Of a stretch of 64,000 bases of DNA, positions 30,363 through 59,800 are shown one piece after another. This DNA comes from Patescibacteria group bacterium (GTDB taxonomy: Bacteria; Patescibacteriota; Patescibacteriia; UM-FILTER-42-10): assembly GCA_041666485.1 (NCBI GenBank), contig JBAYGW010000002.1:7711-71710 (forward strand). The letters run 5' to 3'. How positions within the stretch are numbered: position 1 is the first letter of the stretch; each line of letters begins with the position of its first letter. Made by a program: the position numbers and the translations under genes. The notes under the pieces were generated by a model, which saw only the letters and a list, made by a program, of their open reading frames with translations, was not told the origin of the DNA and ran no database searches.

Positions 30363-30473
30363 TTTGCCGAAAATAATATTATCGCCGGCGGGGCGCAATT
30401 ATTTCCGCAACTTTAACTTGAATTTTCACAATAAAAAGGCTACTATTAATGACTGACCATTAACCATGAATAT

Positions 30474-41402: not shown

Positions 41403-43028
41403 TTAAAGTTTTCTCACTACCCCCTTCGTCGCGTCCACTTCCACCAGATCGCCGTCTTTTAAAATTTTGGTTACTATCTTAGTACCAATTACACAGGGGA
41501 TGCCCAGTTCTCTGGCAATGATTGCAGCATGAGAAGTTACTCCCCCCTGTTCTGTAACAATGGCTGATGCTTTTCTCATGGCCGGCATAATGTCTGGATC
41601 TGTTGCGATTGATACCAAAACATCACCATTTTTCATTTTATTCATATCGGAGGCTCTGATAATTATCCTTACCGTTCCCTTACCCCTGCCGACGCATCCG
41701 CATTGTCCTTGTATTTCTGTTATTTCCTCATCAATTGCCATTTTAGTTTTTTCGGCCAGTTTTTTTGCTGTATTTCCAGTAAATACTTTCTCAATTCCTT
41801 TTTCAACATAATACACGCAAAATCTAGTGCGCTGTTGTAATTCTTTTTTGTCGGGCTTTTCCCCGCCGATTAATGCGTCTCTAACCTCTGATTTGAGCAT
41901 AAACCTCGCCTGCATCAGGGAAATATCCAACCGTCTGGCTATCTCCCCTAATACCGGTTGCATGTTATAAATTGCATATATTTGAGCAAAACGGCGGTAA
42001 ATTTTTGTAATCATGAAATCAGACCAACTTGCGAATATTGTTTTCCAGGGGTTTTTTATCTTAAGCCGTTTGATTAGTATATTACGTTTCAGTATTAAAT
42101 CCTTATATTCTTTTTTTTCTTTTTTAATAATTTCGGATGTATTAATCCCTTCTCCGACCAGTTTTACCAGTTCCTTCAAATAATAGTCAAAAGTATAGAT
42201 ACCATCCTTGCCGATCCACATAAATTTTACATAGTGATACTTAACATAATGATACTGAATCAGTTTCAGTATTTCCATTTTAATCTGATCTTTGATATCG
42301 GCAACCTTTTTTTCAAACGCATCCTCATATTCAGGCGTATGCGTTTCCAGTCCGTACGGAGAAGCACTGTATTCTAAAAACTCCTGGTATAATTCCTGAA
42401 AAAGTTTTTTATGATACGGGTCTTTTTGAATTTTTGCCGCGATTGTTAAAAACTCTTCACGTTCAACCTGGATTAGAGATTTTTTTTCAGGTGCAGTCAG
42501 AGTTACTAAATATTCATTAATCTTTTCTTTTCTGACTCCGATTGATTTTAAATATTTTTTAAGCTCCCCGGTAAAGTTGCTATGAAACATATCAGCGGCA
42601 ACGGGTAACCAGCCCCATTGGTAATACTTCGTGTGGATCTCATCATGTCTGCGATAAAGATACCAAAGCTGTTTTTTCGTCATTCTCTCCAGATTTTCTT
42701 GAGGAAGATTATGTGCATAGTAACACAATTTGTCAGACCATTTTATAATCTCTTCATTCGCTTCCACCGAAAATTGAGGATTTTTAATGAACTTATCAAC
42801 TAGATGTTCCCCCTGCTTATACGAGTCATTTTCACCGAGATAAAACAGCATGCGGTATCCCTTGAAAATAGCCATTACTTTTTCGTTGGCAAATCCGCCC
42901 GGCCTGGCAAATTCATTGGCAAAACAGGATAGCCAAATTTGAGAAAAAAATAAATCAATATCCGGTATGTCTTCAGCTAGCATCCACGGATCTGCGCTAT
43001 TTATATACTTAATTTTTCTTGTAGACAT
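41403..43028 (-). CDS. Phosphohistidine swivel-domain (PEP-utilizers) protein, paralog 5 (541 aa).
   Basis: C-terminus GQCGCVGRGKGTVRIIIRASDMNKMKNGDVLVSIATDPDIMPAMRKASAIVTEQGGVTSHAAIIARELGIPCVIGT. Confidence 0.75.
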   Translation of the reverse strand: MSTRKIKYINSADPWMLAEDIPDIDLFFSQIWLSCFANEFARPGGFANEKVMAIFKGYRMLFYLGENDSYKQGEHLVDKFIKNPQFSVEANEEIIKWSDKLCYYAHNLPQENLERMTKKQLWYLYRRHDEIHTKYYQWGWLPVAADMFHSNFTGELKKYLKSIGVRKEKINEYLVTLTAPEKKSLIQVEREEFLTIAAKIQKDPYHKKLFQELYQEFLEYSASPYGLETHTPEYEDAFEKKVADIKDQIKMEILKLIQYHYVKYHYVKFMWIGKDGIYTFDYYLKELVKLVGEGINTSEIIKKEKKEYKDLILKRNILIKRLKIKNPWKTIFASWSDFMITKIYRRFAQIYAIYNMQPVLGEIARRLDISLMQARFMLKSEVRDALIGGEKPDKKELQQRTRFCVYYVEKGIEKVFTGNTAKKLAEKTKMAIDEEITEIQGQCGCVGRGKGTVRIIIRASDMNKMKNGDVLVSIATDPDIMPAMRKASAIVTEQGGVTSHAAIIARELGIPCVIGTKIVTKILKDGDLVEVDATKGVVRKL

Positions 43029-45279: not shown

Positions 45280-47826
45280 TTAATTAGCAGTTAAATTACT
45301 AATCATGCCCGGAGGAGTACTATCCACCGGCGGTAAGGGGTTGAGCAGTATCCTGCCGTCATACCAGTTTAACGTTACCGAGGTTGTTTCACCTCCCGGA
45401 TTTGCGGCTGGATCTTGTCCGCCATTTGTAGCATCAAGATAGCGATATGTGCCTCCAAGATCTACTGTTGAAGATCCTATATTATTGTTGAGTAATACAA
45501 TCCCGTGCTCAAAGTCCCTTCTATATACTCCGGTTTGAATTTGGACGTAATCAGTCACCGGCAGGCCTAAATAACCCCTTCCGGTGGCATAATCATCTGT
45601 TGGCTGTCCGGTATTAAAATCAACCCAATATTCATCAAACCAGGACTGTGATCTGTTCCCATCAGGGCTTTGCGAATTATAATAAATACCCGTCATTAGA
45701 CTGGCGGCAAGACCATATCTATGATACCGATAGTAAGACGTACTACCCAGAAGGTATGCATTTTCAAATAAATTGTCATTCAGACGGGGTGAAAGCGAAT
45801 GCTCCTCCCAATATTCAAATCCGCGCGTATTGGCCGGATCAAAATAATAAGTTAGCGTACTTGGTTGGAAGAACCTTTCCCACAAATTCCCATTATAATC
45901 AGCATGGTATTCAGCATTGCCATTACCGACTGTCAGCATGTCCTGACCTAAATGCGCCCTATTTTTTTGCATTTGAGCATGCATTCCTTCAATCCAAATT
46001 TGTGTTGCTTTAGCAAGATCCGCATTATCATTTAAATCTTCATCAATTCCGTCAAAATCAAAATCACAATACTGCTCGTAGATCCCCGGATTCTTTACAT
46101 AATCATATAAAAACCAAAAGGAGGATCCGGTTACATCCCACCAAATTCCATCAAAGTAATTCAGCCGGTCAAAAATATCTTTTTCCATGTGTTCCGCTGA
46201 AATATCCGTATACGGAGAAACAACGTTTAAATTATAAATCAAATTACTTGGGAAGCTGGGATTTACGCAATAAGTTCCCGGGTTTTCCGAACTCTGCAAC
46301 CGAAGACTGGGGTTCAAACGGTCATTAAAAGTCTTAAAAGCCACCCCGCTGTAATCCTGATACCCAATCGCATCTTTATACAAAAGAACTACTTCCTGAG
46401 GATTAGCTTCCTTGATTTGGCGGATAACATCAGGAACTAGTATTGAGGCCTTAGAAAAACTCACCAAGTCATATTTTCTTAGATAATCTACTTCGCTTAC
46501 AGATGGAGCATTGCTCCACCACAATTCCGAAATTTTTGGATAGGTCTGCGGAACATCCGGCAGAACCCGGAACTGGCGGAAAAAGCCGTAATCATCCGGA
46601 TCATCTGATGCCCCCTGGCATTTAATGGCAACAGGAAACTGATCAACGATATCATCAACTGTCTGTGTTATTGAATGCTCGGTTCCCACGGCACCAGTAG
46701 AATTTTCAAGTACACTGTATTGCTCCGGCTTCGTACCGTAACGGCAAGCCATGGGTGATGATGTTGTGAAGTTTATGGTAAATTGCTCCGTATTCGGTAT
46801 GAAATACCCGTCGGGACTGGTTACGGATATTTTAGAATCCAAAACAGTCGCGCTACTGTTTAATGCATCACCGCTACCCGTGACAGTCAGGCTGAATTCA
46901 TTACCAACCGCAAAATCACCACTATAATAGATATCGCTTTCGGAAAACGGCACGGATCTTTTATAATATTCATGTATCTGATCTGTTCCGAGCGGAGTAT
47001 TCAAAAATCTCATCTCGTCCACAATTACATCATCATTTCCGATAACCATATCCCCTGCCCCGGGAACGATAGACGGGAAATTTTCCGCCTCTGTGTAATC
47101 TCTCCTGGAAACCTGTTCGCCGTTATAATAATATTTAACGACTTTTTCGGAGGCAGACCAGGTGGCGGTCAGTAATATTGGCGTGTTAGTCGGCATCTCA
47201 ACACGATCATTTCCAGCCTGCGCAGAAAGTTCCCAGCCATCAGTCCCGTCATACATTGTAAATTTGAGTACATTTATTTCATGCACGTTCATCATGAATG
47301 AATCGCCCGTAGAATCATTGTGATACCTGAAAATATACGGACTCGCATCAAACGCCGGATCGCTGAGCGGTTTTTTCAGCGTTAACCAGATATCCATTGT
47401 TCCTTCGTTGAAATCAACATTATTATCAAGTGAATAATTTGCGCTACCGATCATTCCTTTTCCAAATTTTCCATTTTCATATGTTACAGAATCGGAAGAG
47501 ACAGGATTCTCGCCATTCACCGTTGTCTGAGTATCATCAAAATGAGCTAAAAAAGTTGTAGGTACTACGCCGTTTTCAGAAGTAACATCATTTACTGACC
47601 ATTCATAAAGTGAACCCTCAGCTGCATCAGATTGCGCAACTATTTCACTGCCAATATACGGCTGGATAATGTTTAGGTAGGAATCAGTCGCCTGGGTTTC
47701 CGGTGCTAACACACCACCTTTCCACAAATAAAAAACCGCCGATGAAACGGCAGCACTAAAAACAAAAATAACAACTACTTTAGTTATTATACTTCTGACT
47801 CTGAATGCGCTGATATCATTACGCAT
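45280..47826 (-). CDS. Large secreted or membrane-anchored hypothetical protein (848 aa).
   Basis: Complete ORF with an N-terminal TM segment VVVIFVFSAAVSSAVFYLW. It directly abuts the FG-GAP gene. No family I can name. Confidence 0.5.
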   Translation of the reverse strand: MRNDISAFRVRSIITKVVVIFVFSAAVSSAVFYLWKGGVLAPETQATDSYLNIIQPYIGSEIVAQSDAAEGSLYEWSVNDVTSENGVVPTTFLAHFDDTQTTVNGENPVSSDSVTYENGKFGKGMIGSANYSLDNNVDFNEGTMDIWLTLKKPLSDPAFDASPYIFRYHNDSTGDSFMMNVHEINVLKFTMYDGTDGWELSAQAGNDRVEMPTNTPILLTATWSASEKVVKYYYNGEQVSRRDYTEAENFPSIVPGAGDMVIGNDDVIVDEMRFLNTPLGTDQIHEYYKRSVPFSESDIYYSGDFAVGNEFSLTVTGSGDALNSSATVLDSKISVTSPDGYFIPNTEQFTINFTTSSPMACRYGTKPEQYSVLENSTGAVGTEHSITQTVDDIVDQFPVAIKCQGASDDPDDYGFFRQFRVLPDVPQTYPKISELWWSNAPSVSEVDYLRKYDLVSFSKASILVPDVIRQIKEANPQEVVLLYKDAIGYQDYSGVAFKTFNDRLNPSLRLQSSENPGTYCVNPSFPSNLIYNLNVVSPYTDISAEHMEKDIFDRLNYFDGIWWDVTGSSFWFLYDYVKNPGIYEQYCDFDFDGIDEDLNDNADLAKATQIWIEGMHAQMQKNRAHLGQDMLTVGNGNAEYHADYNGNLWERFFQPSTLTYYFDPANTRGFEYWEEHSLSPRLNDNLFENAYLLGSTSYYRYHRYGLAASLMTGIYYNSQSPDGNRSQSWFDEYWVDFNTGQPTDDYATGRGYLGLPVTDYVQIQTGVYRRDFEHGIVLLNNNIGSSTVDLGGTYRYLDATNGGQDPAANPGGETTSVTLNWYDGRILLNPLPPVDSTPPGMISNLTAN

Positions 47827-47918
47827 AGTTTTTTTATACTCAATTTACACATTTAATGATAACAGAAAAATCACATTTTGTCAATCAAGGACGCAACGCT
47901 TCAACATTCTTATTGAGT

Positions 47919-48596
47919 CTACATTTTATTACTTTTTATTTTTTCACAATCTCTTTTCCAATTCAAGAATTTCTTCCAAATTTTCTTATCCTTGTGCCAA
48001 TTATCCCGATCCGCCTCATAAGCTTGTTCTAATTCCCATACAACTTCACTGAAGAATCCTATCTTTCTAAAATAAAGGTCCCGGTCTTTTTTGTTAAAAA
48101 GCGCTTCAAATTTAATTTTACGCCTGCTAATCCACTCAGGATATTTTCCGCCAGTATCATCTAAAATAACAATAATTTTTTGAATGTTCAATTCCCCTCT
48201 GACATTTTCAATAAATATTTCCTTACTTGCTCCTGTAGCGATTACATCATCAACCAAAACTGCCCTGGCACCCTTGCTATATATTCCCTCTATTAATGAG
48301 TCTGTGGAATAACCCTTTGCTTTTTTTCTAATGTAAACCCAAGGGAGTTTTGTTTCCAACGCTATGGCAGCAGCCAGGCCAATCCCACCAGTTTCCCCTC
48401 CGGCAATTATTTCAATCTTTGGTTTGATTATTCTAATAATTTCGGCTAATTCTCGCGCTACCATTTTTAGAACAGCCGGATCAGATAGTGCCGCCTTAGG
48501 ATCCCAATAGATTGGAACAATCCGGTTCGCCTGGATCTTTACTCCGGGAGTATAAAAACGCTTCTGGGCTAATATTTTGAATACCTCATTTTTCAT
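47919..48596 (-). CDS. Type I phosphoribosyltransferase (OPRT-like) domain protein, paralog 1 of 5, with a W-rich C-terminal tail.
   Basis: PRPP-binding loop VLVDDVIATGAS. Tail NWHKDKKIWKKFLNWKR. Confidence 0.65.
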   Translation of the reverse strand: MKNEVFKILAQKRFYTPGVKIQANRIVPIYWDPKAALSDPAVLKMVARELAEIIRIIKPKIEIIAGGETGGIGLAAAIALETKLPWVYIRKKAKGYSTDSLIEGIYSKGARAVLVDDVIATGASKEIFIENVRGELNIQKIIVILDDTGGKYPEWISRRKIKFEALFNKKDRDLYFRKIGFFSEVVWELEQAYEADRDNWHKDKKIWKKFLNWKRDCEKIKSNKM

Positions 48597-49222
48597 TTTT
48601 TTACCCTTCCTCCCCAGTTAATTGGATCTTTAAGATATTGTCTAATCGCTAAAGTATCCTCAACATTAAAAATGCCGTGCTCAATACCAAAGTTGGCAAT
48701 CTCTTGAAAAGTAACCAGATAGTGAATCTTTATCCTATTAGCTTTCTCTATTTTCTTTACCAGTTCCTTTTTGACTATAGAAATTACTAAAACATCTTTT
48801 ATTTTTGCCTTGTTTTTTCTTAACACTTTGACAGCATAATTAATATTGCTCCCGGTCACCACCATATCATCAATCAACACCACTTTCTGACGAGGATTAA
48901 TGATTCCTTCAATTTGTTTTTTAGTACCATTCCTCTTCGGCTTTTTTCTTACATAAACCATTGGTTTGGCAAGTGCCTGAGCAAGAATACCAGCAAATGC
49001 AATACCCGCTGATTCATTTCCCGCAATTATATCATAATAACTTGGCAATAATTTTTTTAGTTGGTTAAAAACCGCTGATAATTCTTTTGGGTAAGATAAT
49101 AAATTTCTATGATCAAGATAAATAGGTTGATATAGCCCCGCTCCACCCAATAGCGGCTTCTTGGAATTACAATAAACATTCTGTGCCTTGTATAATGCTT
49201 TAATAATTTTTAGCTTGTTCAT
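48593..49222 (-). CDS. Type I phosphoribosyltransferase-domain protein, paralog 2.
   Basis: VVLIDDMVVTGSNI. It overlaps paralog 1 by 4 nt, and the upstream gene by 4 nt. Confidence 0.65.
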   Translation of the reverse strand: MNKLKIIKALYKAQNVYCNSKKPLLGGAGLYQPIYLDHRNLLSYPKELSAVFNQLKKLLPSYYDIIAGNESAGIAFAGILAQALAKPMVYVRKKPKRNGTKKQIEGIINPRQKVVLIDDMVVTGSNINYAVKVLRKNKAKIKDVLVISIVKKELVKKIEKANRIKIHYLVTFQEIANFGIEHGIFNVEDTLAIRQYLKDPINWGGRVKK

Positions 49223-50817
49223 AGCTTTTTGATTATCCCTCTTTCCGCATCAACCGATATCTTATCGCCATCTTTCAACAGTTTATCACAATCTGCTACA
49301 CCGACCACGCATGGTATTTTCATTTCTCTGGCTACAATCGCAGTGTGACAGGTCAGCCCGCCGGCTCCGCCAATCAACGCTGATGCCTTTTTCATGGCCG
49401 GCACTAAATTCGGGTTGGTGTTATGAGCAACCATAATATCGCCCTGCTTCATTTTTTTTATATCTTCTGGTATGTTAACTATTTTTACAATTCCTTTGAC
49501 TTTACCGGGATAAGCACAGGTCCCGGAAAGCTGTTTTTTGGCATAATTTGGCTTTTTCAGATTAATAGATTGCATAAACTGTACCGCCTGTTCTCCTGTC
49601 ATGACTTTATTTGCAAATCCCGTTTTTCCTTTTCGTTGCCAGTAATCAACAGCTTTCTTTAGCCTTTCATTCAGAATATGTGGATCAACCTTACCACCTC
49701 TCAGTACAGTAATTATTTCACGTGATTTTAAAGCCTGAACTTGACTTACCGATAGTCCAAATCTCTTTCCTACTTCTTTAAAAATATTTTCATAATAATA
49801 CATCGCATTGTACAGCGCATCTTTACGGAAACTCTTGATATAGACCATTTGCCGAGCCATTTTTAAGATATTTTTTTCATGCTTTGAAAATCCCATCTCA
49901 CTGGTAAGCCTTTTCTGCTCTTTGAATAAATCATTTCTATCATTTTTCTTTTGATTTAACATCGCTTGCGGATCTTTTCTTTCACGCAAAAATGCCTGCC
50001 AACGAACTAAATAATCTCCCAGAGGATAAGCTGGACCTTTGTATTGATAGGTAATCGGACTAAATTTATAATAATGCTGATTGATACTTCGCTGAATTTG
50101 TGGATCAATTCCTGATAAATTATTTATCAGGCTTTTCAAACTAGACTGGACAAAAACCTCCCTTAGCTTTCTTTTTTTACTAATCATTAATGCAATTTTT
50201 AGAAAGCTTGTTTCCTCCTGATCAAGCAAGCTGCGTTTAACCGGCGAAGTAAGGATGGAAAAAATCCTTGATGCGCTTTCTTGTATTTTTGCTTTGTTTA
50301 ATTGTTTTTGCACTATTTTCAAGATTGCCTTGGTCAACAGTTGTTCTCCGGCATCCACATGCCAACTTACGCTAGTTGCATATCCATGACTTTGCATGTG
50401 AACTTTGCGAATTTCTGCCATGAGTTCAGCAATTTGCAGATTGCTCATTTTTGATAGATTCATTCTTTTCACTCGGTTCATTATTCTGAAGAATTCTTGA
50501 TTTGCCTCCTCAACTTTTTTCATAATTCCCAAGGCCCATTCTGGTTTTTTTATCGCCTTATCTGCTAGATATCTGCACTGTGTATTAAATTCTTTTTGCA
50601 CATAAATCATTTGGGAGAATTCACCGTCAAAATATGTGAAATATTCTTTTTCAAAATTACCTGCCCCCTGTTTTGGATATACAGAAAAAAACGCCTCAGC
50701 CGGAATTTCCATCATAAAGATAGTGTTCTGGGGGATGCCCTCAACCGCTTCCCATATTTTTTTGCTGGTTGTATTAGGTTTTATTCTTTTCTTTTTCATA
50801 TTATTTGGTGCCCCCAT
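49219..50817 (-). CDS. Phosphohistidine swivel-domain (PEP-utilizers) protein, paralog 6.
   Basis: C-terminus GTCAYPGKVKGIVKIVNIPEDIKKMKQGDIMVAHNTNPNLVPAMKKASALIGGAGGLTCHTAIVAREMKIPCVVGV. The track ORF (to 50931) runs into the tRNA-Arg gene. I chose the internal ATG at about 50817 (MGAPNNMKKK...). An alternative start is the ATG at 50799. Confidence 0.7.
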   Translation of the reverse strand: MGAPNNMKKKRIKPNTTSKKIWEAVEGIPQNTIFMMEIPAEAFFSVYPKQGAGNFEKEYFTYFDGEFSQMIYVQKEFNTQCRYLADKAIKKPEWALGIMKKVEEANQEFFRIMNRVKRMNLSKMSNLQIAELMAEIRKVHMQSHGYATSVSWHVDAGEQLLTKAILKIVQKQLNKAKIQESASRIFSILTSPVKRSLLDQEETSFLKIALMISKKRKLREVFVQSSLKSLINNLSGIDPQIQRSINQHYYKFSPITYQYKGPAYPLGDYLVRWQAFLRERKDPQAMLNQKKNDRNDLFKEQKRLTSEMGFSKHEKNILKMARQMVYIKSFRKDALYNAMYYYENIFKEVGKRFGLSVSQVQALKSREIITVLRGGKVDPHILNERLKKAVDYWQRKGKTGFANKVMTGEQAVQFMQSINLKKPNYAKKQLSGTCAYPGKVKGIVKIVNIPEDIKKMKQGDIMVAHNTNPNLVPAMKKASALIGGAGGLTCHTAIVAREMKIPCVVGVADCDKLLKDGDKISVDAERGIIKKL

Positions 50818-50880
50818 GAGGAATCCCCGCCAGAGGCGGGTGCGCCTCGGGCGCAGAACCTTTAACTTAATACTCCAGAT

Positions 50881-50957
50881 TGGTGTGCCCGACAGGACTT
50901 GAACCTGTGGCCTTGAGATCCGGAATCTCACGCTCTATCCAACTGAGCTACGGGCAC
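50881..50957 (-). tRNA. tRNA-Arg (anticodon CCG).
   Basis: The reverse complement folds as GTGCCCG/CGGGCAC acceptor, GCTC-AGTTGGATA-GAGC, anticodon stem TGAGA/TCTCA with loop TTCCGGA, T-arm ACAGG-TTCAAGT-CCTGT, discriminator A, and CCA. Confidence 0.8.
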
Positions 50958-50962
50958 ATGAC

Positions 50963-51682
50963 TTAAATTTTATAAAAACTTTGATCAAAAGTTAAGTTTC
51001 TCTCTTTTGCCGCCAATTCTTTGAATCGTTTCCAGTTGGCGGGGACTTTTTGCCAGGCTAATGGATCCTTGAGTTGTTCAATAATCAAATCCCCTAATTT
51101 TTTACTGATAAATTTATTATCAGCCGCATATTTCATCATTTCCGGCCAGGTAAAAAGAGCGATGAATTTATATTTTTTATTTTCCCTGAGCCAACGTTGC
51201 GGTTTACGGTATTTTGGTCCATAAAATGCATCCATAATCACGATGATGCCTTTAACCTTCAAACCAGCCGCTGTTAATGTTTTAATAATTTCTTTTTTAT
51301 CCCCGCCTGTTGACATCGCATCATCAATAACCACCACGCTTTGGCCTTTCCGATACATACCTTCAATTACATTCCTAGTATTGTACCCTTTTGGCTTCTT
51401 CCTTAGATACAGGAAATCTTTTTTCAAAATACTGGCCACTGCTACACCGTAAGGCACCCCCGCCGCTTCTCGGCTGGCAATCAGATCCGACTTCACACTT
51501 CTTGCTGATTTTGCCAGTTCTTGGGTCAGTATACTAAAGACCTTATTCCGGGAGAAGGCCTTGCGGTGGTCTGGATATAAGGGAAAATGTCCGATACGCG
51601 GACTAATAAAGTTCCCTGCCATAAAATATCCTTTGAATAACAATGCTTTCGCTGCCCGCTTATTCATATTATATTCTGACAT
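50963..51682 (-). CDS. Type I phosphoribosyltransferase-domain protein, paralog 3.
   Basis: VVVIDDAMSTGGDK. Tail PLAWQKVPANWKRFKELAAK. Confidence 0.65.
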   Translation of the reverse strand: MSEYNMNKRAAKALLFKGYFMAGNFISPRIGHFPLYPDHRKAFSRNKVFSILTQELAKSARSVKSDLIASREAAGVPYGVAVASILKKDFLYLRKKPKGYNTRNVIEGMYRKGQSVVVIDDAMSTGGDKKEIIKTLTAAGLKVKGIIVIMDAFYGPKYRKPQRWLRENKKYKFIALFTWPEMMKYAADNKFISKKLGDLIIEQLKDPLAWQKVPANWKRFKELAAKERNLTFDQSFYKI

Positions 51683-51737
51683 TGAATCTTATAAATTTAT
51701 TTCATCCAGAGAATATTCAGAAGACCGCCAGTAGTAT

Positions 51738-52445
51738 TTACTTTCCTGAGTCAGTGAAACCCTCCGATTTTGCCAGTGATACAAACTCATTCCACTTTTT
51801 ATTATCCTTTTGCCATACCTTCAAATTTTTCCAGATATCATACATATAATCGCCCAGCTTTTTTGAAATATAGCCGTTCTTAACCATATACTTCACCAAG
51901 TCATTATGTTTCACAAATGAATGTATTTTAATTTTATTTTTGGCATAAAACGGAATATATTCCACCCCGGCATCATAAAGCACCAACACATCGCTTACAA
52001 CCAGACCTTTTCTCTGCAGTGTCTTGATAAAACGTTCCTTTGTACTGCCGGTACCGATCCCGTCATCTACCACTAATACATTTTCACCCTTCCTGTATAA
52101 TCCTTCCAATAAAGTTACTGTTGAGCCGTCCTTTTTTGTTTTCTGCCTGAGATAAATAAACGGTTTATGGGATGCTAGCGATACAGCCATGGCCAGCGGA
52201 GTACCGGAAACCATGGTGCCGGCCACTAAATCAATCTTTTTTCCTTTCATAAAGTCGGCGATTTCTTCTGATACCACTTTCATTTTATCCGGATGGGAAT
52301 AGAGCCGTTTACTGGTAATATAGATCGGCGACGGCTCGCCAAGTGATCCATAAAATTTACCAAAGACAAAAAAACCGAAATCACTGAGTAGCTTGGCGAT
52401 ACGTTTATTCATACGGACAATAATTATTAGAGTATTAGATAGCAA
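51738..52445 (-). CDS. Type I phosphoribosyltransferase-domain protein, paralog 4.
   Basis: VLVVDDGIGTGSTK. Tail LKVWQKDNKKWNEFVSLAKS. Confidence 0.65.
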   Translation of the reverse strand: MLSNTLIIIVRMNKRIAKLLSDFGFFVFGKFYGSLGEPSPIYITSKRLYSHPDKMKVVSEEIADFMKGKKIDLVAGTMVSGTPLAMAVSLASHKPFIYLRQKTKKDGSTVTLLEGLYRKGENVLVVDDGIGTGSTKERFIKTLQRKGLVVSDVLVLYDAGVEYIPFYAKNKIKIHSFVKHNDLVKYMVKNGYISKKLGDYMYDIWKNLKVWQKDNKKWNEFVSLAKSEGFTDSGK

Positions 52446-52483
52446 CTACTATCATAATGGATTTTCTGCTTTTTGAAAACCCT

Positions 52484-53218
52484 TCATTTCCTCATATCAT
52501 CCACTGCATTAATTACTGACTGCGGAATCTGACATTTTAATTTATTCAAGACCTCAAAATAAACATCCCATTTTGATACATCCTTCTGCCAGACTTCCGG
52601 ATGCAGGGCATAATCCATAAAATGCGGATAGATTTCCTTATCAATTTTTCCCCGTCTGTATAAACCATCAATTAGTTCTTCCCAGGTAAAAAGATTATAA
52701 ATGGGTATACCACTAACTTCTAAATTTTCTCTTGCTTCGTTTTTAGTAAAATATTCTGCCATAGTTTTAAAGATCATGGCCAGAGCAACAGTTACCACGC
52801 CGTCATGCTTCATATTTTCAACAAACAATGTTTTAGCTTCCCCCTTAGCCATCAGATCATCTACCAGAATCGCCCGGTCGCCCGGTCTGGCCCGTCCGGA
52901 AATGTAAGTATCCTCGCCTCGGCCACGCTGCTTTTTCCGAACGTAACTGAAAGGAATCCTAGTTTTATAGGATAAAAGCGTTGCTAATGGCATGCCGGCC
53001 GTTTCTGCTCCTACAATCAAATCAATTCCGTGCCAGTCAACCAGCTTAAGCAGTTCATCGGTAACTAAATCCATAAGCTCCGGATTGGAGAACGCTTTTC
53101 GATTATCCGTCTGTAACGGAATCGGCCCGACTGAAACGACTACCGGATATTCACCAACCAGATTAGGCGTGGCCGCATATAAATCAAAAATTTTTTCTTT
53201 AGTTTCTTGGTTAATCAT
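52484..53218 (-). CDS. Type I phosphoribosyltransferase-domain protein, paralog 5.
   Basis: AILVDDLMAKGEAK. Tail PEVWQKDVSKWDVYFEVLNK. Confidence 0.6.
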   Translation of the reverse strand: MINQETKEKIFDLYAATPNLVGEYPVVVSVGPIPLQTDNRKAFSNPELMDLVTDELLKLVDWHGIDLIVGAETAGMPLATLLSYKTRIPFSYVRKKQRGRGEDTYISGRARPGDRAILVDDLMAKGEAKTLFVENMKHDGVVTVALAMIFKTMAEYFTKNEARENLEVSGIPIYNLFTWEELIDGLYRRGKIDKEIYPHFMDYALHPEVWQKDVSKWDVYFEVLNKLKCQIPQSVINAVDDMRK

Positions 53219-53328
53219 GGTTATTCTAATTACTTTTCCTTGTTTTATTTTAGCATGAAATCTATTATTTTGTACTGGTTAATAATTAACTGACGAAATT
53301 GATTCCCATACTAAGTACTGTCGCAGGA

Positions 53329-53357
53329 GTTGACAAAAGCGAGAAATAGGTGTATAA
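53329..53357 (+). promoter_or_regulatory. Perfect consensus sigma70 promoter (TTGACA-N17-TATAAT) driving high-GC cassette 2.
   Basis: TTGACA at 53329-53334, a 17-nt spacer, then TATAAT at 53352-53357. Confidence 0.6.
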
Positions 53358-53522
53358 TTGTCTGTTAAAATTTATTCTCTTTTGGAGAGAATGCGGGCAC
53401 TCTCTTGCAAGTGAAAAATTCATTTTCAGCAGAGTGCCTACTTTACTGGCACATTGACATAAAACACAACCAGTCCAGAAATTCTGGCTGGTTTAGAATC
53501 ACCACTGTCATGGAGGTAACCA
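53358..53522 (+). promoter_or_regulatory. Structured ~165-nt 5' leader of cassette 2, possibly a cis-regulatory RNA.
   Basis: Nested inverted repeats TTCTC-ttttg-GAGAA, GGCACTCT...AGAGTGCC (8-bp stem) and CCAG-tCCAGAAatTTCTGG-CTGG, then the SD GGAGGT placed 6 nt before the ATG. Confidence 0.4.
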
Positions 53523-54125
53523 ATGACGAAGCGAGTATTCGTCCAGGGTGATCGTGATCCTGGCGTAGATCTCTCCGCATGCGCGCTGAAGACTGCTCAG
53601 CTCCTCAAGCAGAGTGGCTGGGAAGCGAACGTCGGCGCGTACGGCGGACTGGTTCGGATCTTTGAGGAGTCTGGCATGCGCTGCCATGCGCATGTTATGG
53701 CACCTCGCGGCAGGGAAGTTCAGTTCAGCGACTGCATCGTGTCGGTCACGGACTGTAACCAACTCGTGCGGTCTCTCCCGGCGAATATCCGCTGGGGAGG
53801 CGAAGCCGACCAGATTCTCACTTGGGGGCTCCGTCTCAGCGTCTGGATGGCCCATTCCGATGCCTTCATTTTCTTCGCCGGCCGGGAAGGCACGATGGCC
53901 CATCTCGTGCCGATCCTGGCCTGGAACCGCAAAGTTCTGGCCAAGGAAGGCCGGGCCAAGAAGGTCGTCCTGATCGGATGGGACAAGCTGCAGCGGGATG
54001 CACTCTACACCTTGGGATTGATCACAATCCCGGAAGGTGATTGGGCCTCCGATGACGCGGAATGGTTCCGCACATACTCAATGTACAACGTTGAGGGAGC
54101 CGTCAACTTCCTCACCGAGGAGTGA
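53523..54125 (+). CDS. Divergent LOG/SLOG-family (Lonely-guy, TIGR00730-like Rossmann fold) protein. High-GC and foreign. 200 aa.
   Basis: HSDAFIFFAGREGTMAHLVPILAW aligns with the LOG signature [24 protein letters not shown], and AYGGLVRIF is in the position of GGGxxGLMG. The catalytic Glu of the PGGxGTxEE motif is replaced (MAH). GC3-rich codons. Confidence 0.55.
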   Translation: MTKRVFVQGDRDPGVDLSACALKTAQLLKQSGWEANVGAYGGLVRIFEESGMRCHAHVMAPRGREVQFSDCIVSVTDCNQLVRSLPANIRWGGEADQILTWGLRLSVWMAHSDAFIFFAGREGTMAHLVPILAWNRKVLAKEGRAKKVVLIGWDKLQRDALYTLGLITIPEGDWASDDAEWFRTYSMYNVEGAVNFLTEE

Positions 54126-54131
54126 CAACAC

Positions 54132-54263
54132 ATGGACTTCATCAAGCCTCTCCTGCTGGTGGTGTCACTAGTGTGTTTGCTGACTGCGGCGAAGGACCAT
54201 CGTGGTGATGGACCGCTCGCCAAAATCGGCACCCTGCTCCTTATCGTTGGCGCTATGGCGTAA
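54132..54263 (+). CDS. 43-aa hydrophobic membrane peptide, translationally coupled to the LOG-like gene.
   Basis: MDFIKPLLLVVSLVCLLTAAKDHRGDGPLAKIGTLLLIVGAMA. The ATG lies 6 nt after the upstream stop. High GC. Too short to appear in the ORF track. Confidence 0.4.
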   Translation: MDFIKPLLLVVSLVCLLTAAKDHRGDGPLAKIGTLLLIVGAMA

Positions 54264-54285
54264 GCCTGGGGCGCCCTCACCCTTT

Positions 54286-54338
54286 CCCCCGCGTGTCGTA
54301 CTGATTAGTTTCGGTACGATGCGCGGGGTGTTTATTTT
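54286..54338. terminator. Rho-independent terminator ending cassette 2. It overlaps the 3' end of the convergent APH-like gene.
   Basis: CCCCGCGTGTCGTAC...GTACGATGCGCGGGG is a long imperfect stem, followed by TGTTTATTTT. Confidence 0.55.
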
Positions 54339-55378
54339 GTCAAAATATCTGTATACCAATCAGCCGTTTTGTTTTCACTTCTGGTTATTAAAGCCAATCC
54401 GGTTTCTCTGATTTTTGCCTCCAATCGTGGCTGATTCTTATAATATGACCCGGACCGACCATCAGTTCTGGAAACCATATATACCCCGGTCCAGACAGTG
54501 ATTCGCCTAATAATCCCCTCAATCTCTTGAGCAGAAATGCCGAAGGATCTCATTGTTTCAATGTATGCTTTGTTAAAATATTTAATGAAATATCGGCAAT
54601 CTCTGACAACCTGCTCATTGCCTTCTAATAACTTGATTACCCAATGTGCTAGAAATATGCCATTATCAAAAGCCGGATCATGATGTATGGCAAAATCAAA
54701 ATCTAACACCGAAAAATTGTATTTACTGACAAAGATATTTCTATGCACAGGATCGCCCCAAATGAAGGCCTTTTTGGCTTTATCAGATTGGTTGGTGAAT
54801 TTACTGATTACTTCCTTGGCCACAAGTTTTTTAGCACCAAACATAACCCAATCCCGCCATATGCCATGAATTCTTTTTTGCCAATCAGCACCATCAAATG
54901 CAAGCGGTGTATTATAGGTTTTTCCATGCAGTGTGCCAAAAAAAATGCCAAATTTTTCTGCTAGCTGAGGATACACTTTATGTTTATCAAATTCTTCAAC
55001 CAAGATCTTCTTTTTTCCTTGTATATCATCCATCACCAAAATATAATTTTGAAGATCAATATATAAGACCATTGGTACAATTTCTTTGCCGAGTAATGAT
55101 TCTAATAACCTCAGTTTTTCACCTTCAATTATTACTCTTTCCGGATCTACGCGAATTCTCCTGTTTCTCTTAACATACCCGTCAGACTGTTTCAAATACA
55201 AAATCTTTTTACCCCGACTGGTAAGACAGTTCACCCGATAGACAAAACAGGCATTGGTATATTTTGTTACCTCCTCTACGCTAGTTACTTTTTTTAATTC
55301 AAAAGAAAATTCTTTCGCTGCTTGAGTGAGCAAATATTCAGCAATGTTTCCTTCAGTTAGAAAAAATCTTTTTCCCAT
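54332..55378 (-). CDS. Protein-kinase-like fold phosphotransferase (APH, choline-kinase or MTR-kinase family).
   Basis: WGDPVHRNIF aligns with the HGD...N catalytic loop, and VLDFDFAIHHD with the DFG/DFE metal-binding motif. Overall ~350 aa, typical of the APH family. Confidence 0.5.
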   Translation of the reverse strand: MGKRFFLTEGNIAEYLLTQAAKEFSFELKKVTSVEEVTKYTNACFVYRVNCLTSRGKKILYLKQSDGYVKRNRRIRVDPERVIIEGEKLRLLESLLGKEIVPMVLYIDLQNYILVMDDIQGKKKILVEEFDKHKVYPQLAEKFGIFFGTLHGKTYNTPLAFDGADWQKRIHGIWRDWVMFGAKKLVAKEVISKFTNQSDKAKKAFIWGDPVHRNIFVSKYNFSVLDFDFAIHHDPAFDNGIFLAHWVIKLLEGNEQVVRDCRYFIKYFNKAYIETMRSFGISAQEIEGIIRRITVWTGVYMVSRTDGRSGSYYKNQPRLEAKIRETGLALITRSENKTADWYTDILTK

Positions 55379-55422
55379 GATATTTTCATCTTAGCGCTTG
55401 CCCGACCGCTTGTAAACCCAAG

Positions 55423-55446
55423 AAAAAACAGCCTGCTAGGGCTGTC
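55423..55446 (-). terminator. Rho-independent terminator for the minus-strand gene ending at 55489.
   Basis: On the minus strand: ACAGCCCTAGCAGGCTGT hairpin followed by TTTTTTC. Confidence 0.55.
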
Positions 55447-55488
55447 TCTAAAATAAGGGGGTAAACTCTCCGCCTACTTTTATTGATT

Positions 55489-56838
55489 TTAAACTGGTTC
55501 CGGTATAGATAATTTCACACCGTTATCTTCAACGTCCTGCCACACGTATTTTCCGCTGACCAAATCGCCATACACCATCCCCTGCACGGAAGTCTCACCT
55601 TTCTCCACTAACATATTTTCCAGCTGTATGCCGAAACGGGCGGATTCCGGGTCGCTCAGATTCATTTTTTCTTTGAAAATATTTTGTAGAAAAGCGCTGA
55701 GATACGGAGCGGTAAATCCGTTGCGTTGAAAATCGGCCATAACTTCCGGTTTATATTTTTTCTGCAGTAGAGCTTTGGTAAAGAAACTGATTCTTTCATT
55801 CAACTTTAGCTCTTCAATCAAATCCCCCTTCTCCGCTATAAACCGCAGGGCCGCGACCGCTTTATATTTATCTTTCTGGTCAACTGCTGACATGAATATT
55901 TCAACAATTGCACTTAAATTACCATTATTCAACTGCTCCAGGCCGGTTTCTGCATCATGAATCATAATTCTTTCCCCTTCGGAACCGAGGAATTCTTCAA
56001 TCAGTTTTTCACGCTGTTTTTCCGGATCAATATTCTCTGCAGGAATTGGTTTCACTGAAGTAACCACCTCTTCTTCAACCATATGCCCGGTAGTCGGCGT
56101 ATAAAGCGGGGTCGGAAAGCGCAGATAATCATAAACGCGGATGACTTTCAGTATCAGATTTTTTTCCGCCGGAGCGAGATTACGTACATTTTTACCCTGG
56201 TTGATATAGCTCACTTCTTCCACAGGCGAATGCAAGCTGGATGAATTAAAAAACGCTTCAAAATCAACCAGCCAATTACCTACTGTCGGCTCTTTCGTCT
56301 GCTTCGGACCGTCATCTAAGTTATAAGCACCACCGATCGGCATTTTACCGATTTTTTCCTTGTTCTCCCTGATACTCTGAATCAATCGCTGACGTAAGAC
56401 CACCAGTAAATCAAATGGAAACCCTTTAAACACCATCATATTGTAAAACAGCTCTTCAACCGGTAATTCCCAAAGAAACGCTTTAACCAAAAAATTTCTT
56501 AATAGCCAGGTGATTTCCAGTTCGCCGCGGACAGGCATAGTTCGGAACATACCATAAACCACCAAGTCCTGGTATTTCAGATATAATTTCGGATCCTGTT
56601 CCTGAAAACCTTTGATCAAATTCTGCAGAACAAAAATCATTTCCGATGAATCACCCAGTTCCATGCCGAATTGCGGATCTATAAAAGTTATAAAAAGCCG
56701 TTCATATATCTTCTCATTTTTCAGATCTTCAGCGGATATTTTGCGGATGGAGTCCGGGGTAAACAAAACAATTCGTTCCTGAACGATTTTATTCACTATA
56801 TCTTCGCGTAATGGAATTGAATTTAAATCCATGATCAA
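55489..56838 (-). CDS. Hypothetical protein (449 aa).
   Basis: Complete ORF with its own downstream terminator. No motif I recognise. Confidence 0.5.
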   Translation of the reverse strand: MIMDLNSIPLREDIVNKIVQERIVLFTPDSIRKISAEDLKNEKIYERLFITFIDPQFGMELGDSSEMIFVLQNLIKGFQEQDPKLYLKYQDLVVYGMFRTMPVRGELEITWLLRNFLVKAFLWELPVEELFYNMMVFKGFPFDLLVVLRQRLIQSIRENKEKIGKMPIGGAYNLDDGPKQTKEPTVGNWLVDFEAFFNSSSLHSPVEEVSYINQGKNVRNLAPAEKNLILKVIRVYDYLRFPTPLYTPTTGHMVEEEVVTSVKPIPAENIDPEKQREKLIEEFLGSEGERIMIHDAETGLEQLNNGNLSAIVEIFMSAVDQKDKYKAVAALRFIAEKGDLIEELKLNERISFFTKALLQKKYKPEVMADFQRNGFTAPYLSAFLQNIFKEKMNLSDPESARFGIQLENMLVEKGETSVQGMVYGDLVSGKYVWQDVEDNGVKLSIPEPV

Positions 56839-56868
56839 TTTGATATTAAATAACTGAAAATAAGATTA

Positions 56869-59800
56869 TTATTCCTCGCTGTCCGGTTTAGGATTCGGCT
56901 CTGCCGGAGGCTCCGGTGTTGGTCCGGAAGCAGGTGGAACATCACCTGTCGCAGGTGCCTGCTCCGTTGTAGCAGTGTTTGGATTTCTAGTATCCGGTTT
57001 AGATGCCTCGGGTTTCGGAGTAACTTCATGCCAATCCGTAGTCCCCGCAGGACTCGGCGCGGGGCCGGCACCGCCTTGCGGACGGCTGGGTCTCGGGTTA
57101 GGTCCGCTAGATCTGGAAGCTGCCGGTCTTGGACCTGTCTGTCCGCCTCCGCTAGATGGTTTTGGAGCGCCGTCTCCTGACGGAGCTTCTTCTCCCTTAC
57201 CGGCTTTTTCACCTTTCAATGTCTTTACTAACTGCGTTAACGCGTAAACCAGTGTCTGTTGCATCATCGGATTGTTCATTTTTCCGCTAGCAACCAATTC
57301 TGAATGAAGGCCAAAAGCATCAACCGCATCCCGGGCTTTATTTTGTTTTTCCGGATCTTTTATTTTATCAATATTTTCTTTCAGTGCCAGGACCATGTTA
57401 CCGATACTCTGGTTCAAATCAAGGAATGACTGCGGATCAATCACCTTGCCAAGTGTTGCAAACTGGTTGCTTAAGTCAGCCAGTCCGGCGGCGAGTGCAT
57501 CCATTCCTGTCATAGATTCCGCGTCCTTCGGCATCAGATCAGCCAACCCCTGTTCAATTGCCGCTTGATTCGCAGCTTCCAGATCATCGGATAGTTTCTT
57601 CACACCCGCAACCTGAGCATTCACTACTCCTTCCATTGCATCATCATCCAATGTATCCACAAATTCCCCGTCCATTTTCTTCTTTGCCCACTTTTTCTTT
57701 CCGCCTGTTTTCTTGTCTAATACTTCATCATACTCATATGTAAAATCGCCGTCACTAATCGGGGTTCTGTCTTTAAGACTGGTACGTAAATCTTTTTCGT
57801 GCTTTTCCGCTGCCGCCTTAGGTTCCAGAACTGGTTTTTCTTTTGGTAATTCACCCAGACCCGGTTTCATTCTGGATACATCTACAGGCATCTTTTCCTT
57901 ATCATTACTATAGTTATAGTAATCTTCATCTATCGGAATAGACAATTCAGGTTTTTTTGCTCCACGGTAGGCACTATTCCACAACGCCCTGATCATAGAT
58001 GGATTAATTGCGTATATATCTTCAAATCTTTTCTTGGCAACTGGATCAGGCTTTGGCATTCCTTTCTCGTCCAGAACTACATTGTTATTTTCATCTTTTT
58101 CTGGCACAAAATTTCCTTTTTCATCAAATATCCGATCTCGCCAGTTTTCATCACTGATTCCATTGTGACTGCCGACCAGAATCTGGGACAGGCGCGCCTG
58201 AAAATGATGCGCTTCCGGAATCATGGAAGGTGTCAGTACTTCACCCAAAAATCTTTTCTGGGAAACAGACATAAGATCCGCGTCAGTTGAAAAATCCCAA
58301 CCAGCACCTAAATCTTTTCCATCTTCATCTTTTCTGTTTTCTTTATACACTAGCGAGTGCATGGCATGAGGAGCCACACCCTGCATAAAAGCACGAGATC
58401 CGCGTTTGCGCGCTTCCCCTTTTACTTCGCCGATTCTTTCATCCTCGTTCATAATCCGATACTTGCCGGTTTTCGCATCCAAAGTAGCCATCGTCTGCTC
58501 CCAGTGGCCGACATTACGTGACGACTGGCTGATTGTATACATGGTACGTAATGCAGTCTGCTCTTCATGTGTAGCATTTTCCGCACTCTTATTGGATTCT
58601 GCAGTAGCTTCTTTCATTAATCTACTTCTCTCTTTTGGATCAGCCTTATCGTAATCAATATTCTGTTCTTTTGCTTTTCTTTTAGCAATGGTTGTGGGGT
58701 CAAATTTACCACGATCCAACTGCAAATAACCCATGGTAAACTGCTTGAACCCTTCATCATCCATGACTTTGGCTTTTTCCCAGCTATCAAACCCGAATTG
58801 CTGGGCTGTTGTATTATCCTTAATCAGACCGCTGGAAAGAAAATGGGCATACACATCATCCAAATTGCCTCGTTCCGCGGCTAATTCAATAATAGCCTCA
58901 CGGGAACGCTCCCCTTTGATACCACCCAAACGCATCGCTTGTTCCGCCAGTTCCGCCATTTTCTCCTTGCCGGCGCCGGACTCCGAGATCTCTTTCATCA
59001 TTTCGCCTTTGTATTCACCCACCACTGCACTACGGGCCATTTCCGCTCGCTGCATAGCTGCGCCCTTGGGTGAAACTTTAAGATTACCCCGTTTCTGACG
59101 GAAAAAACGCGGTAACCATTCGTCCATTACCTTTTCCGCCATCTCTTCTCCCTTACCGGCTATTTCCCTGTTTTGTTGGGTGGCTAAACGCTCTCCTCTC
59201 TGGCCGATACCCTTCCAATAGGAAGGGCTCAATATCGGGGCTTTTTCTGTGATCTTTCTGCCGATTGCACCGTAGGTTCGCTTGGCAAACCGGTTGTTGA
59301 AAGGCTTCTTTAAGGTCTTCATACCCATTGATTTCAGCTTGTCCGGGAACCGGCCGACGGTTGAACCGCCCATCACGCCGAATTCCTGAGTCAGCATAAT
59401 ACCGGTCAGAAGCAGTGCAATAGTAATAATATAATTAAACATGTTCTGGGTGTTCATGATTGCCGAAGCACCCTTTGGCAGTTTTGTAGCATCAACAGCA
59501 TCAGAGTCTGCTAATGTTCCATCGCTCACTCCAATATCAGACAAATCAATCGGCGCTCCCGCGCTGGTAGAGATCACGGAAAGTGATAACCACAAAAAGA
59601 AAGCCAGCACCGGACCGGCCGTCAGATTTTTACCCAGTTCCGTCCACCACCTGCTGGCATAGCGTGAAGTATTGGGTAACACTGATGCAATGTAGGCAAC
59701 CGGAGAAAGAATAACCAGGATCCAGATCATCAGAATTCTTGCTATTAAGATAACTAGCATGGCAAGTAAAACCGCAATCGCAACCACCAGCATCCCGTTG

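Follow-up and report, generated by a model that had tools for sequence, protein, structure and literature searches.

Why five genes for phosphoribosyltransferases (PRTases) should stand side by side in a single bacterial locus is the question raised by positions 47919-53218 of the DNA analyzed here. The window, meaning the whole stretch that was analyzed, is a 64,000-nt chromosomal segment of a Patescibacteria metagenome-assembled genome (MAG), positions 7,711-71,710 of contig JBAYGW010000002.1. Patescibacteria are abundant and mostly uncultured, and as a group they are generally credited with little biosynthetic capacity. The biosynthetic repertoires of this lineage, the Candidate Phyla Radiation, have been described as limited and variable (PMC7304191). 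How these organisms acquire nucleotides and keep them in balance is a central part of understanding why they depend on hosts. The five paralogs are relatives of orotate phosphoribosyltransferase (OPRT), and four of them carry an extended C-terminal tail. The explanation rated best, with roughly an even chance of being right, is that the array encodes active PRTases with diverged substrates, set in a salvage island centered on phosphoribosyl pyrophosphate (PRPP).

All five PRTase genes that a preliminary description of this DNA had listed are present; they lie on the minus strand, and each encodes a PF00156 domain. The window as a whole also contains genes for ClpB, RadA, ComF, DsbA, a type IV pilin, and proteins resembling type IV secretion system (T4SS) components, and the genomic context considered below is that of the 64-kb window and of 20-kb loci from relatives. 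The array comprises the following features, where PEP is phosphoenolpyruvate.

47919-48596, minus strand: P1, a tailed OPRT-like PRTase of 225 aa, 'ADRDxW' subfamily, last gene of the operon (PF00156, 30.6 bits)
47919-47999, minus strand: C-terminal extension of P1, from W200 to the stop codon, with WHKDKKIWKKF at residues 200-210
48593-49222, minus strand: P2, an untailed OPRT homologue of canonical (PyrE-like) type, 209 aa (full-length match to NF001729)
49219-50817, minus strand: PEP-utilizer paralog 6, start uncertain (ATG at 50817 or 50799; PF00391, 86.4 bits)
50881-50957, minus strand: tRNA-Arg(CCG), in the orientation of the operon (ARAGORN; Rfam RF00005, 70.7 bits)
50963-51682, minus strand: P3, a tailed OPRT-like PRTase of 239 aa, '...KNLxFDxSFxxI' subfamily
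50963-51055, minus strand: C-terminal extension of P3, from W210 to the stop codon
51738-52412, minus strand: P4, a tailed OPRT-like PRTase of 224 aa counted from the ATG at 52412, '...AKSEGF' subfamily
51738-51815, minus strand: C-terminal extension of P4 (WQKDNKKWNEF... to the stop codon)
52484-53218, minus strand: P5, a tailed OPRT-like PRTase of 244 aa, '...IPxxVIEAVDEMRK' subfamily, first gene of the operon
52484-52591, minus strand: C-terminal extension of P5 (WQKDVSKWDVY... to the stop codon)

Read 5' to 3' along the minus strand, P5 is separated from P4 by 71 nt and P4 from P3 by 55 nt; the tRNA begins 5 nt past the P3 stop codon, and about 63 nt separate it from PEP-utilizer 6. Overlaps of 4 nt join PEP-utilizer 6 to P2 and P2 to P1. 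The PEP-utilizer-domain open reading frame (ORF), called dikinase-like in the earlier account, and the tRNA are the only interruptions of the array, just as had been reported. The ORF called for PEP-utilizer 6 (49219-50931, with a GTG start at 50931) does run through the tRNA, and this start is an artifact; the true start is most likely the ATG at 50817 or 50799, judging from the sequence. For P4, the called ORF (51738-52445, TTG start, 235 aa) has 11 extra residues that are present in none of the orthologues, and since the orthologues begin at the equivalent of the ATG at 52412, this codon (224 aa) is most likely the start. P3 may start at its own sixth codon.

By domain, motif, and fold the five proteins are OPRT-like. 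The PF00156 matches lie above the gathering score in every case (27.4-45.1 bits versus 26.3), and the best NCBIfam match is a pyrE model for all five (E values of 1e-20 to 1e-36). None of the five reaches the curated NCBIfam cut-off for pyrE, apt, hpt, xpt, or upp: scores against TIGR00336 are 74 (P1), 86 (P2), 81 (P3), 76 (P4), and 63 (P5) bits with a cut-off of 106.8, those against NF001729 are 69-126.5 bits with a cut-off of 245 (the full-length match of P2 being the 126.5), and models of the apt, hpt, xpt, and upp types give at best 20-55 bits with cut-offs of 125-243. A clean division into apt, hpt, upp, and pyrE, which the preliminary description had set against its own proposal, is therefore not what is found. 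Among solved structures, OPRTs and UMP synthase are nearest in sequence, and the Rossmann-like core and hood subdomain of type I PRTases are present. In the AlphaFold2 (AF2) model of P3 (10-sequence alignment, pLDDT 91.6), 192-203 of the 239 residues align with the structural matches; the residues left unmatched are the C-terminal extension and a subfamily-specific insertion of about 20 residues (approximately 153-172) after the fifth core strand.

The PRPP loops of the five paralogs (VLVDDVIATG, VLIDDMVVTG, VVIDDAMSTG, VLVVDDGIGTG, and ILVDDLMAKG) are present as previously quoted, and the flexible catalytic loops read YIRKKAKG, YVRKKPKR, YLRKKPKG, YLRQKTKK, and YVRKKQRG. All five retain the Asp-Asp pair in the PRPP loop, and in the catalytic loop (Y-x-R-K/Q-K-x-K/R) they retain the Tyr and the basic residues. 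The catalytic-loop residues presumably correspond to R99, K100, and K103 of the E. coli enzyme, and P5, which is deviant in both loops (RKKQRGRG and DDLMAKG), has Arg at the K103 equivalent. At what we take to be the 'DR' position of E. coli Arg156, the paralogs have DA, DD, DA, KT, and IV, none with Arg; Gram-positive-type OPRTs also lack Arg at this position, so the comparison is uninformative there. The N-terminal double zinc ribbon of ComF-type proteins is absent from P1-P5. A sixth PRTase-domain protein of the window, a ComF-like ORF at 12750-13532 (plus strand), has this ribbon and is unrelated to the array.

With PyrE of the Gram-positive/eukaryote type (2aee; B. anthracis 3m3h/4rv4; B. 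cenocepacia 4ohc; human UMPS 2wns), the array shares the PRPP loop (hydrophobic residues followed by D-D-x-x-x-x-G), the Y-x-R-K-K-x-K-G loop, and the 'DPxxW' C-terminal helix. P2 aligns end to end with the OPRTs 4ohc, 3m3h, 3dez, and 2aee, has the C-terminus of canonical Gram-positive-type OPRTs (...DPINWGGRVKK), and groups with untailed OPRTs in a neighbor-joining tree; by these comparisons it is a near-canonical PyrE-like copy. In contrast to the usual single pyrE gene, the array is multi-copy and its members score below the pyrE cut-offs, P1, P3, P4, and P5 extend past the canonical C-terminus, and P3 adds its insertion of about 20 residues.

PRTase folds have repeatedly become regulators, and very weak NCBIfam matches to the purR and GfcR models could be read as a sign that the paralogs regulate the island's expression in response to PRPP or nucleotides, in the manner of PyrR, PurR, or archaeal GfcR-like proteins. 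This is very improbable: the matches score 16-23 bits where the cut-offs are 258-300, each protein consists of a single domain (224-244 aa) and has no DNA-binding domain, the tail has no similarity to known nucleic-acid-binding modules, and four or five regulators in one operon would be implausible.

A W-rich tail had been ascribed to all five proteins and described as unusual. The motif W-x6-W-x2-F/Y, followed by 15-35 more residues, is present in P1, P3, P4, and P5 and absent from P2, and part of it is widely shared. The first Trp has its counterpart in the C-terminal Trp of OPRT 2aee from S. pyogenes ('...DQVNWQ') and in 30 of 45 untailed OPRT-like sequences; by alignment, it is a canonical residue, part of the 'DPxxW' C-terminus of Gram-positive-type OPRTs. 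The family-specific part consists of a second invariant Trp seven residues on, F/Y at +3 from this second Trp, and 15-53 further residues. The tail census covered 149 non-redundant sequences of 195-265 aa, with extended tails defined as at least 14 residues past the first Trp. By this measure 104 sequences are extended, with Trp at +7 in 84 and F/Y at +10 in 86, and the strict motif W-x6-W-x2-[FYWL] occurs in 74 of the 104 as compared with none of the 45 untailed sequences. Only about 11 positions have an identical consensus in all seven subfamilies tested; both Trp belong to this group, as does the Asp-Asp pair. Because of this census and the conservation of the Trp pair, the tail motif is judged to lie beyond chance.

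In the AF2 model of the P3 tail (pLDDT above 94), helices are predicted at residues 207-211, 214-225, and 234-237, the last of them preceded by a short strand (231-232). Searched alone against Pfam and the PDB, the tail has no significant similarity. The hood of type I PRTases, in which the base is held, is made up of the N- and C-terminal segments, and for this reason the tail would be expected to enlarge the hood subdomain. The long-form adenine PRTases of trypanosomatids (Leishmania 1qb7/1mzv, T. brucei 5vn4), which are among the structural matches, are likewise type I enzymes with a C-terminal extension, and theirs reportedly serves dimerization. They belong to another subfamily, however, and their extension has neither sequence similarity to the array tails nor the W-x6-W motif.

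The tailed proteins belong to an old radiation. An exhaustive HMMER profile search of 1.84 billion cluster representatives returned 11,790 matches at E<1e-3, equivalent to the OPRT superfamily, and 99 representatives at E<1e-30; word-indexed searches (with P3 and with an 11-sequence alignment) returned 24-31 matches, a strong under-count of the family. The window paralogs are only 24-38% identical to one another, and the four tailed copies 25-35%. Orthologues in other genomes are closer: each paralog has some at 52-96% identity, and gene by gene the identities are 82-96% for P4 (85-96% in loci L001 and L005), 83% for P1 (L005), 48-79% for P3, and 38-69% for P5, and on this account the duplications are estimated to be old. 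In the neighbor-joining tree the tailed proteins form separate deep clades, P1, P3, P4, and P5 each falling in a different one. The radiation comprises at least eight subfamilies, four in the window and at least four others (signatures 'ADPTGWHK', '...GKFI', '...KSGI', and '...NYPFF'). All tailed subfamilies conserve the PRPP-loop Asp-Asp and the Tyr of the Y-x-R-K-K-x-K/R-G loop, and most conserve the basic residues of this loop.

The P3 subfamily, which also served as the search query, was traced in more loci than any other; the genome scan with the P3-subfamily alignment recovers P3 orthologues only, by construction. P3 and its SLOG-like neighbor (described below) are 100% identical to NCBI 'Patescibacteria group bacterium' proteins, and the named sources of tailed proteins are all Patescibacteria (Buchananbacteria, Magasanikiibacteriota, and 'Patescibacteria group'). 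No relative of the tailed PRTases was found in 2.9 million viral contigs, and these paralogs are not described in the literature that was searched. Neither that literature nor the curated family libraries include the tailed subfamilies, their multiplicity, or their fixed gene company; the fold and the chemistry belong to a known kind.

OPRT functions only as a dimer, the catalytic loop of each subunit serving its neighbor. The paralogs could then be isozymes or parts of a hetero-oligomeric OPRT, using orotate or acting as dead partners that pair through the dimer interface or through the tail as regulatory or structural subunits. A tailed gene nearly always has at least one other tailed copy next to it, and one subfamily lacks the loop Arg, both of which fit such pairing. 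In addition, about 25 cluster representatives of 420-470 aa (P0036, P0039, P0044, P0052, P0064, and others) are tandem PRTase-PRTase fusions with an OPRT-like C-terminal half, a hint that OPRT-like paralogs can act as hetero-pairs. This arrangement is nevertheless decidedly unlikely, as copy number is variable and often odd (1 in L045, 3 in L003, 4-5 elsewhere), the extended tail is missing from the fusions, and the Asp-Asp and basic loop are kept in all four tailed window paralogs. De novo pyrimidine synthesis is also not generally known from Patescibacteria, so that orotate may be scarce. The Pfam scan of the window covered ORFs of at least 150 aa apart from three (15547-17628, 56869-60411, and 60428-63928), and no pyrB, pyrC, pyrD, or pyrF is among its matches; in L003, an OTCase/ATCase-family gene lies 7 kb away.

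A comparison of gene neighborhoods across relatives, as proposed earlier, finds the company of the tailed genes conserved over 14 distinct loci (the window, L001, L003, L005, L006, L007, L008/L050, L045, L046, L048, L049, L068, L069, and L070), each with 1-5 tailed PRTases. PEP-utilizer paralogs are present in 11 of the 14 loci, an APH-fold kinase beside the tailed PRTases in 10, a LOG/SLOG-fold protein in 9, and NAPRTase in 4. In three loci, genes for PRPP synthetase, LOG, and an NnrD-like Carb_kinase are inserted inside the array itself, and in these the P4 and PRPP synthetase genes overlap by 4 nt (translational coupling). LDcluster4/LOG genes adjoin tailed PRTases in L046 and L068, and the remaining company includes HAD or His phosphatases, PfkB, and a stand-alone PPDK_N ATP-grasp protein. 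In the Buchananbacteria locus L003, the PRTase/kinase/SLOG core lies between scpA/scpB, tpiA (TIM), and aspS (AspRS). The setting of the array is a housekeeping one, in the window as well (ClpB, RadA, and ComF), and its synteny is conserved and vertical.

This setting is at odds with an anti-phage defence role, which the preliminary description had raised by analogy with retron effectors. As effectors like the type III-A retron PRTase, or as nucleotide-depleting enzymes, the paralogs are hardly credible, and this reading is largely refuted. PADLOC PRTase_III-A matches are marginal and limited to P1, P2, and P4, the best of them (E 1.9e-6) being to the canonical-like P2; PADLOC gives no match for P3, P5, the SLOG-like protein, the APH-like kinase, or PEP-utilizer 6. 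The array and the retron effectors have in common a generic PRTase core around the PRPP loop, and the weak HMM matches are confined to that region. In contrast to retrons, the Pfam matches of the scanned window ORFs and the called genes of related loci include no reverse-transcriptase family, and the only Rfam RNA in 47500-55700 is the tRNA. The conserved vertical synteny in housekeeping regions and the lack of viral-contig relatives also tell against defence, which was rejected.

The favored reading, that of active PRTases in a PRPP-centered salvage island, combines three expectations. Activity is expected because the motifs are kept and purifying selection is evident from the conserved orthologues; diverged acceptor specificity, because the paralogy is old and each subfamily has conserved signatures of its own; and a place in primary nucleotide or PRPP metabolism, because PRPP synthetase, LOG, and NAPRTase occur in the array. 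Each paralog would condense PRPP with a nitrogenous base to yield a nucleoside 5'-monophosphate and pyrophosphate, and the paralogs would differ in the base accepted. The extra C-terminal helices, anchored by the two invariant Trp, would enlarge the hood, the part of type I PRTases that forms the base pocket and the dimer contacts. Together with the MtnK-like kinase, the LOG-fold protein, and the phosphatases, and in relatives with PRPP synthetase, LOG, and NAPRTase, the PRTases would form an island with which a bacterium of modest biosynthetic means could use scavenged bases and ribose phosphate to rebuild and rebalance its nucleotide pools; bases might be exchanged on ribose phosphate by the joint action of the PRTases, PRPP synthetase, and LOG-type cleavage. 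No paralog carries the signature of a standard salvage PRTase, so that if these genomes salvage bases, the paralogs are the candidate enzymes for the task. The earlier suggestion of base salvage in an auxotrophic symbiont, one of three options among which the preliminary description made no choice, gains support from the Patescibacteria origin of the MAG and from the PRPP synthetase, LOG, and NAPRTase genes that lie in or abut the array in relatives.

Several observations set limits to the salvage reading. A scan of seven subfamilies for specificity-determining positions picked out 14, scattered and not concentrated in the hood, a result that speaks neither for nor against divergent specificity. 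In the 'ADPTGWHK' subfamily, which is not represented in the window, Asn replaces the loop Arg, so that not all family members need be catalytic. Finally, simple salvage does not require the tight and widespread link to PEP-utilizers or a LOG-fold protein without the catalytic Glu, and these may belong instead to a dedicated pathway.

In such a dedicated pathway, for a non-canonical nucleotide, a ribosylated cofactor, or a signal, the tailed PRTases would phosphoribosylate unusual acceptors. The products would be processed by split rifampin-phosphotransferase-like enzymes, the MtnK-like kinase, and HAD/His phosphatases, and bound or processed by the degenerate LOG-fold protein. The pathway is improbable overall, though less so than the other alternatives. 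The PEP-utilizer link in 11 of the 14 loci often takes the form of overlapping stop and start codons (PEP-utilizer 6-P2-P1 in the window; P3-PEP-utilizer in L001 and L007), the two families have multiplied in parallel (4-5 PRTases and 4-6 PEP-utilizers), and the SLOG-like partner lacks the LOG catalytic Glu. PRTase folds have also been recruited to nucleoside-antibiotic synthesis (e.g., the adenine phosphopsicosyltransferase 7f06), and SLOG genes have been described both in pairs with PRTase genes and in NAD-salvage contexts (PMC6459960). Against these points, the called genes of the 14 loci show no family obviously devoted to an unusual base or scaffold and no dedicated transporter or effector (several neighbors have no family match), and primary metabolism would account for PRPP synthetase, LOG, and NAPRTase of canonical type within the array. 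Subfamily number and identity vary from 1 to 5 per genome, unlike a fixed biosynthetic pathway, and in the Buchananbacteria loci L003 and L008 no PEP-utilizer lies within 10 kb of the PRTases, which in L003 are accompanied by the APH- and SLOG-like genes.

It is rather unlikely, and somewhat less probable than a dedicated pathway in general, that the tailed PRTases, the one-ATP-grasp/many-swivel paralogs, the MtnK-like kinase, and the degenerate LOG-fold protein make up an undescribed Patescibacteria pathway. One version would hold new base-to-nucleotide activities (cytosine, thymine, or modified-base PRTases, with dikinase-type phosphorylation replacing standard kinases), and another a lineage-specific ribosylated cofactor or signal. 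The modified-nucleotide option of the preliminary description retains in its favor the recurrent link to rifampin-phosphotransferase-like paralogs, the degenerate LOG-like protein, and the MtnK-like kinase; salvage by active, diverged PRTases is still preferred to it. A lineage-wide OPRT-derived radiation with no member assignable to a known specificity supplies concrete candidates for missing nucleotide biochemistry. The tailed PRTases are small, soluble, and confidently modeled, which makes their base specificity directly testable. If they are ordinary salvage enzymes, annotation will improve for hundreds of 'phosphoribosyltransferase family protein' entries; if they are not, new PRTase chemistry may emerge.

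The partner genes and signals of the window are as follows (GC3 is the GC content of third codon positions).

28326-29300, minus strand: stand-alone PPDK_N ATP-grasp subunit (PF01326, 337.8 bits)
31457-32965, 36869-38383, 38402-39880, 39870-41348, 41403-43028, and 49219-50817, minus strand: six PEP-utilizer paralogs of about 500 aa
32952-33563, minus strand: HAD-family phosphatase, overlapping PEP-utilizer paralog 1 (PF13419)
53330-53358, plus strand: consensus sigma-70-like promoter TTGACA-17-TATAAT (12/12, a consensus match only), upstream of the SLOG-like gene
53523-54125, plus strand: SLOG/LOG-fold partner of 200 aa, a GC3 outlier (AF2 and Foldseek)
54287-54328, plus strand: terminator-like hairpin with an 18-bp stem and a T-run, between the convergent SLOG-like and APH-like genes
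54332-55378, minus strand: APH-fold kinase of 348 aa, nearest characterized relative 5-methylthioribose kinase (PF01636, 31.3 bits)

The promoter match sits in the divergent intergenic region between the SLOG-like gene and P5. The SLOG-like protein has no Pfam match at E<0.01 (weakly PF03641, E 0.046). Its AF2 model (pLDDT 83.3) is best matched by Foldseek to the type-II LOG 5wq3, TT1465, YgdH, and a Moco-carrier protein (E about 1e-6, TM about 0.6). The LOG motif is degenerate, AGREGTMAH replacing PGGxGTxEE, and the catalytic Glu is gone. The gene is syntenic in seven lineages, with orthologues in L001, L003, L005, L006, L007, and L048. In its C-H-x-H motif Cys54 is invariant, and His55 and His57 are conserved in the closest orthologues only. 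SLOG-PRTase gene pairs and SLOG-NAD-salvage neighborhoods have been described (PMC6459960, summarizing Burroughs et al. 2015), and the array likewise has a conserved SLOG neighbor, with NAPRTase and the NnrD-like Carb_kinase in the same islands. In contrast to those neighborhoods, the SLOG member of the array is LOG/Moco-carrier-like rather than YpsA, and its PRTases, of which there are several, derive from OPRT. The surroundings are housekeeping genes with vertical conservation, with no conflict-system effectors among the neighbors seen, no PADLOC systems, and no viral-contig relatives.

The APH-fold kinase scores 52 bits against the MTRK model TIGR01767 (cut-off 275), and its sole PDB match is a weak one to MtnK 2olc (E 2.8e-4). 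PEP-utilizer paralog 6 has a substrate-binding domain and a phospho-His swivel domain and no ATP-grasp domain. Among rifampin phosphotransferase/PEP-synthase-like kinases, it matches the C-terminal half of the substrate-binding domain and the His-swivel, its residues 315-530 corresponding to 653-864 of 5fbs and 5hv1. In contrast to those enzymes, the ATP-grasp domain is separate and encoded once (28326-29300), whereas the substrate/His modules are present six-fold in the window. The PPDK_N subunit is presumed to be the common partner of the six PEP-utilizer paralogs. Its orthologues (58-63% identity) adjoin tailed PRTases in L045 and L046, as do those of the HAD phosphatase. The set of one PPDK_N gene and many PEP-utilizers with the HAD phosphatase recurs in these two distant Patescibacteria, and in L046 one PEP-utilizer paralog is fused to a HAD domain. 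Proteins of 474 and 497 aa occupy the corresponding position in L045 and L046, and the 464-aa protein beside PPDK_N in the window (26957-28351) has no detectable homology to them.

The tRNA-Arg(CCG) within the array is genuine. It stands at the same place only in the closest relative (L005, 11552-11626), where naive ORF calling again carries the PEP-utilizer ORF through it, and it is absent from L001, L006, and L007. No functional tie between the tRNA and the array was found. The idea that it serves CGG-rich neighbors is weak and was rejected: CGG accounts for 5 of the 14 Arg codons of the SLOG-like gene, versus a background of 15%, and the SLOG-like orthologues use CGG only 1-5 times, most of them without the tRNA.

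The SLOG-like gene (GC 0.594, GC3 0.72) and a His-phosphatase-like gene at 29607-30272 (plus strand; GC 0.611, GC3 0.84) are extreme outliers in base composition beside the other 42 large ORFs of the window (GC3 0.29-0.45). This pattern is repeated in orthologues from six to eight other AT-rich genomes (L001, L003, L005, L006, L007, L048, L068 at 4957-5544, and L046 at 7661-8251), and GC3 peaks at 0.90 in a Magasanikiibacteriota locus of 34% GC. The predicted mRNA folds of the two genes (regions 53451-54350 and 29501-30400) are 2.2-5.8 standard deviations more stable than dinucleotide shuffles, as compared with z scores of -1.5 to +1.4 for three neighboring PRTase genes used as controls. Canonical LOG genes in the same islands are not GC-rich. 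The pattern suggests selection on synonymous sites, through mRNA structure or rare-codon control.

Several further features of the window lie outside the array. A 300-aa ORF at 30474-31376 (plus strand) has the histidine-phosphatase 'RHGE' signature (VFLLRHGESNN) with a marginal Pfam match (E 0.099); this ORF and the GC-rich one of 221 aa upstream of it are a pair of divergent His-phosphatase-like genes adjoining PPDK_N. Two adjacent paralogous ORFs for small membrane proteins (33626-34036, 136 aa, and 34049-34375, 108 aa; both plus strand), which have '...VLVY(S/T)MLVEMYSLGIVST(V/A)Y...' in common, lie directly upstream of a GAF-PAS histidine kinase gene (34688-36436) that interrupts the PEP-utilizer array. 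Genes for a VirB4/TraG-like ATPase and T4SS-pilin-like proteins are found at 21061-25770. Two very large ORFs occupy 56869-60411 (1180 aa) and 60428-63928 (1166 aa), both on the minus strand; the translation of the first has long hydrophobic stretches and a C-terminus that is Pro/Ala/Gly-rich and encoded by GC-rich DNA (56851-57300). In close relatives a conserved 449-aa protein (55489-56838 in the window) is always encoded between the large protein and the APH-like kinase.

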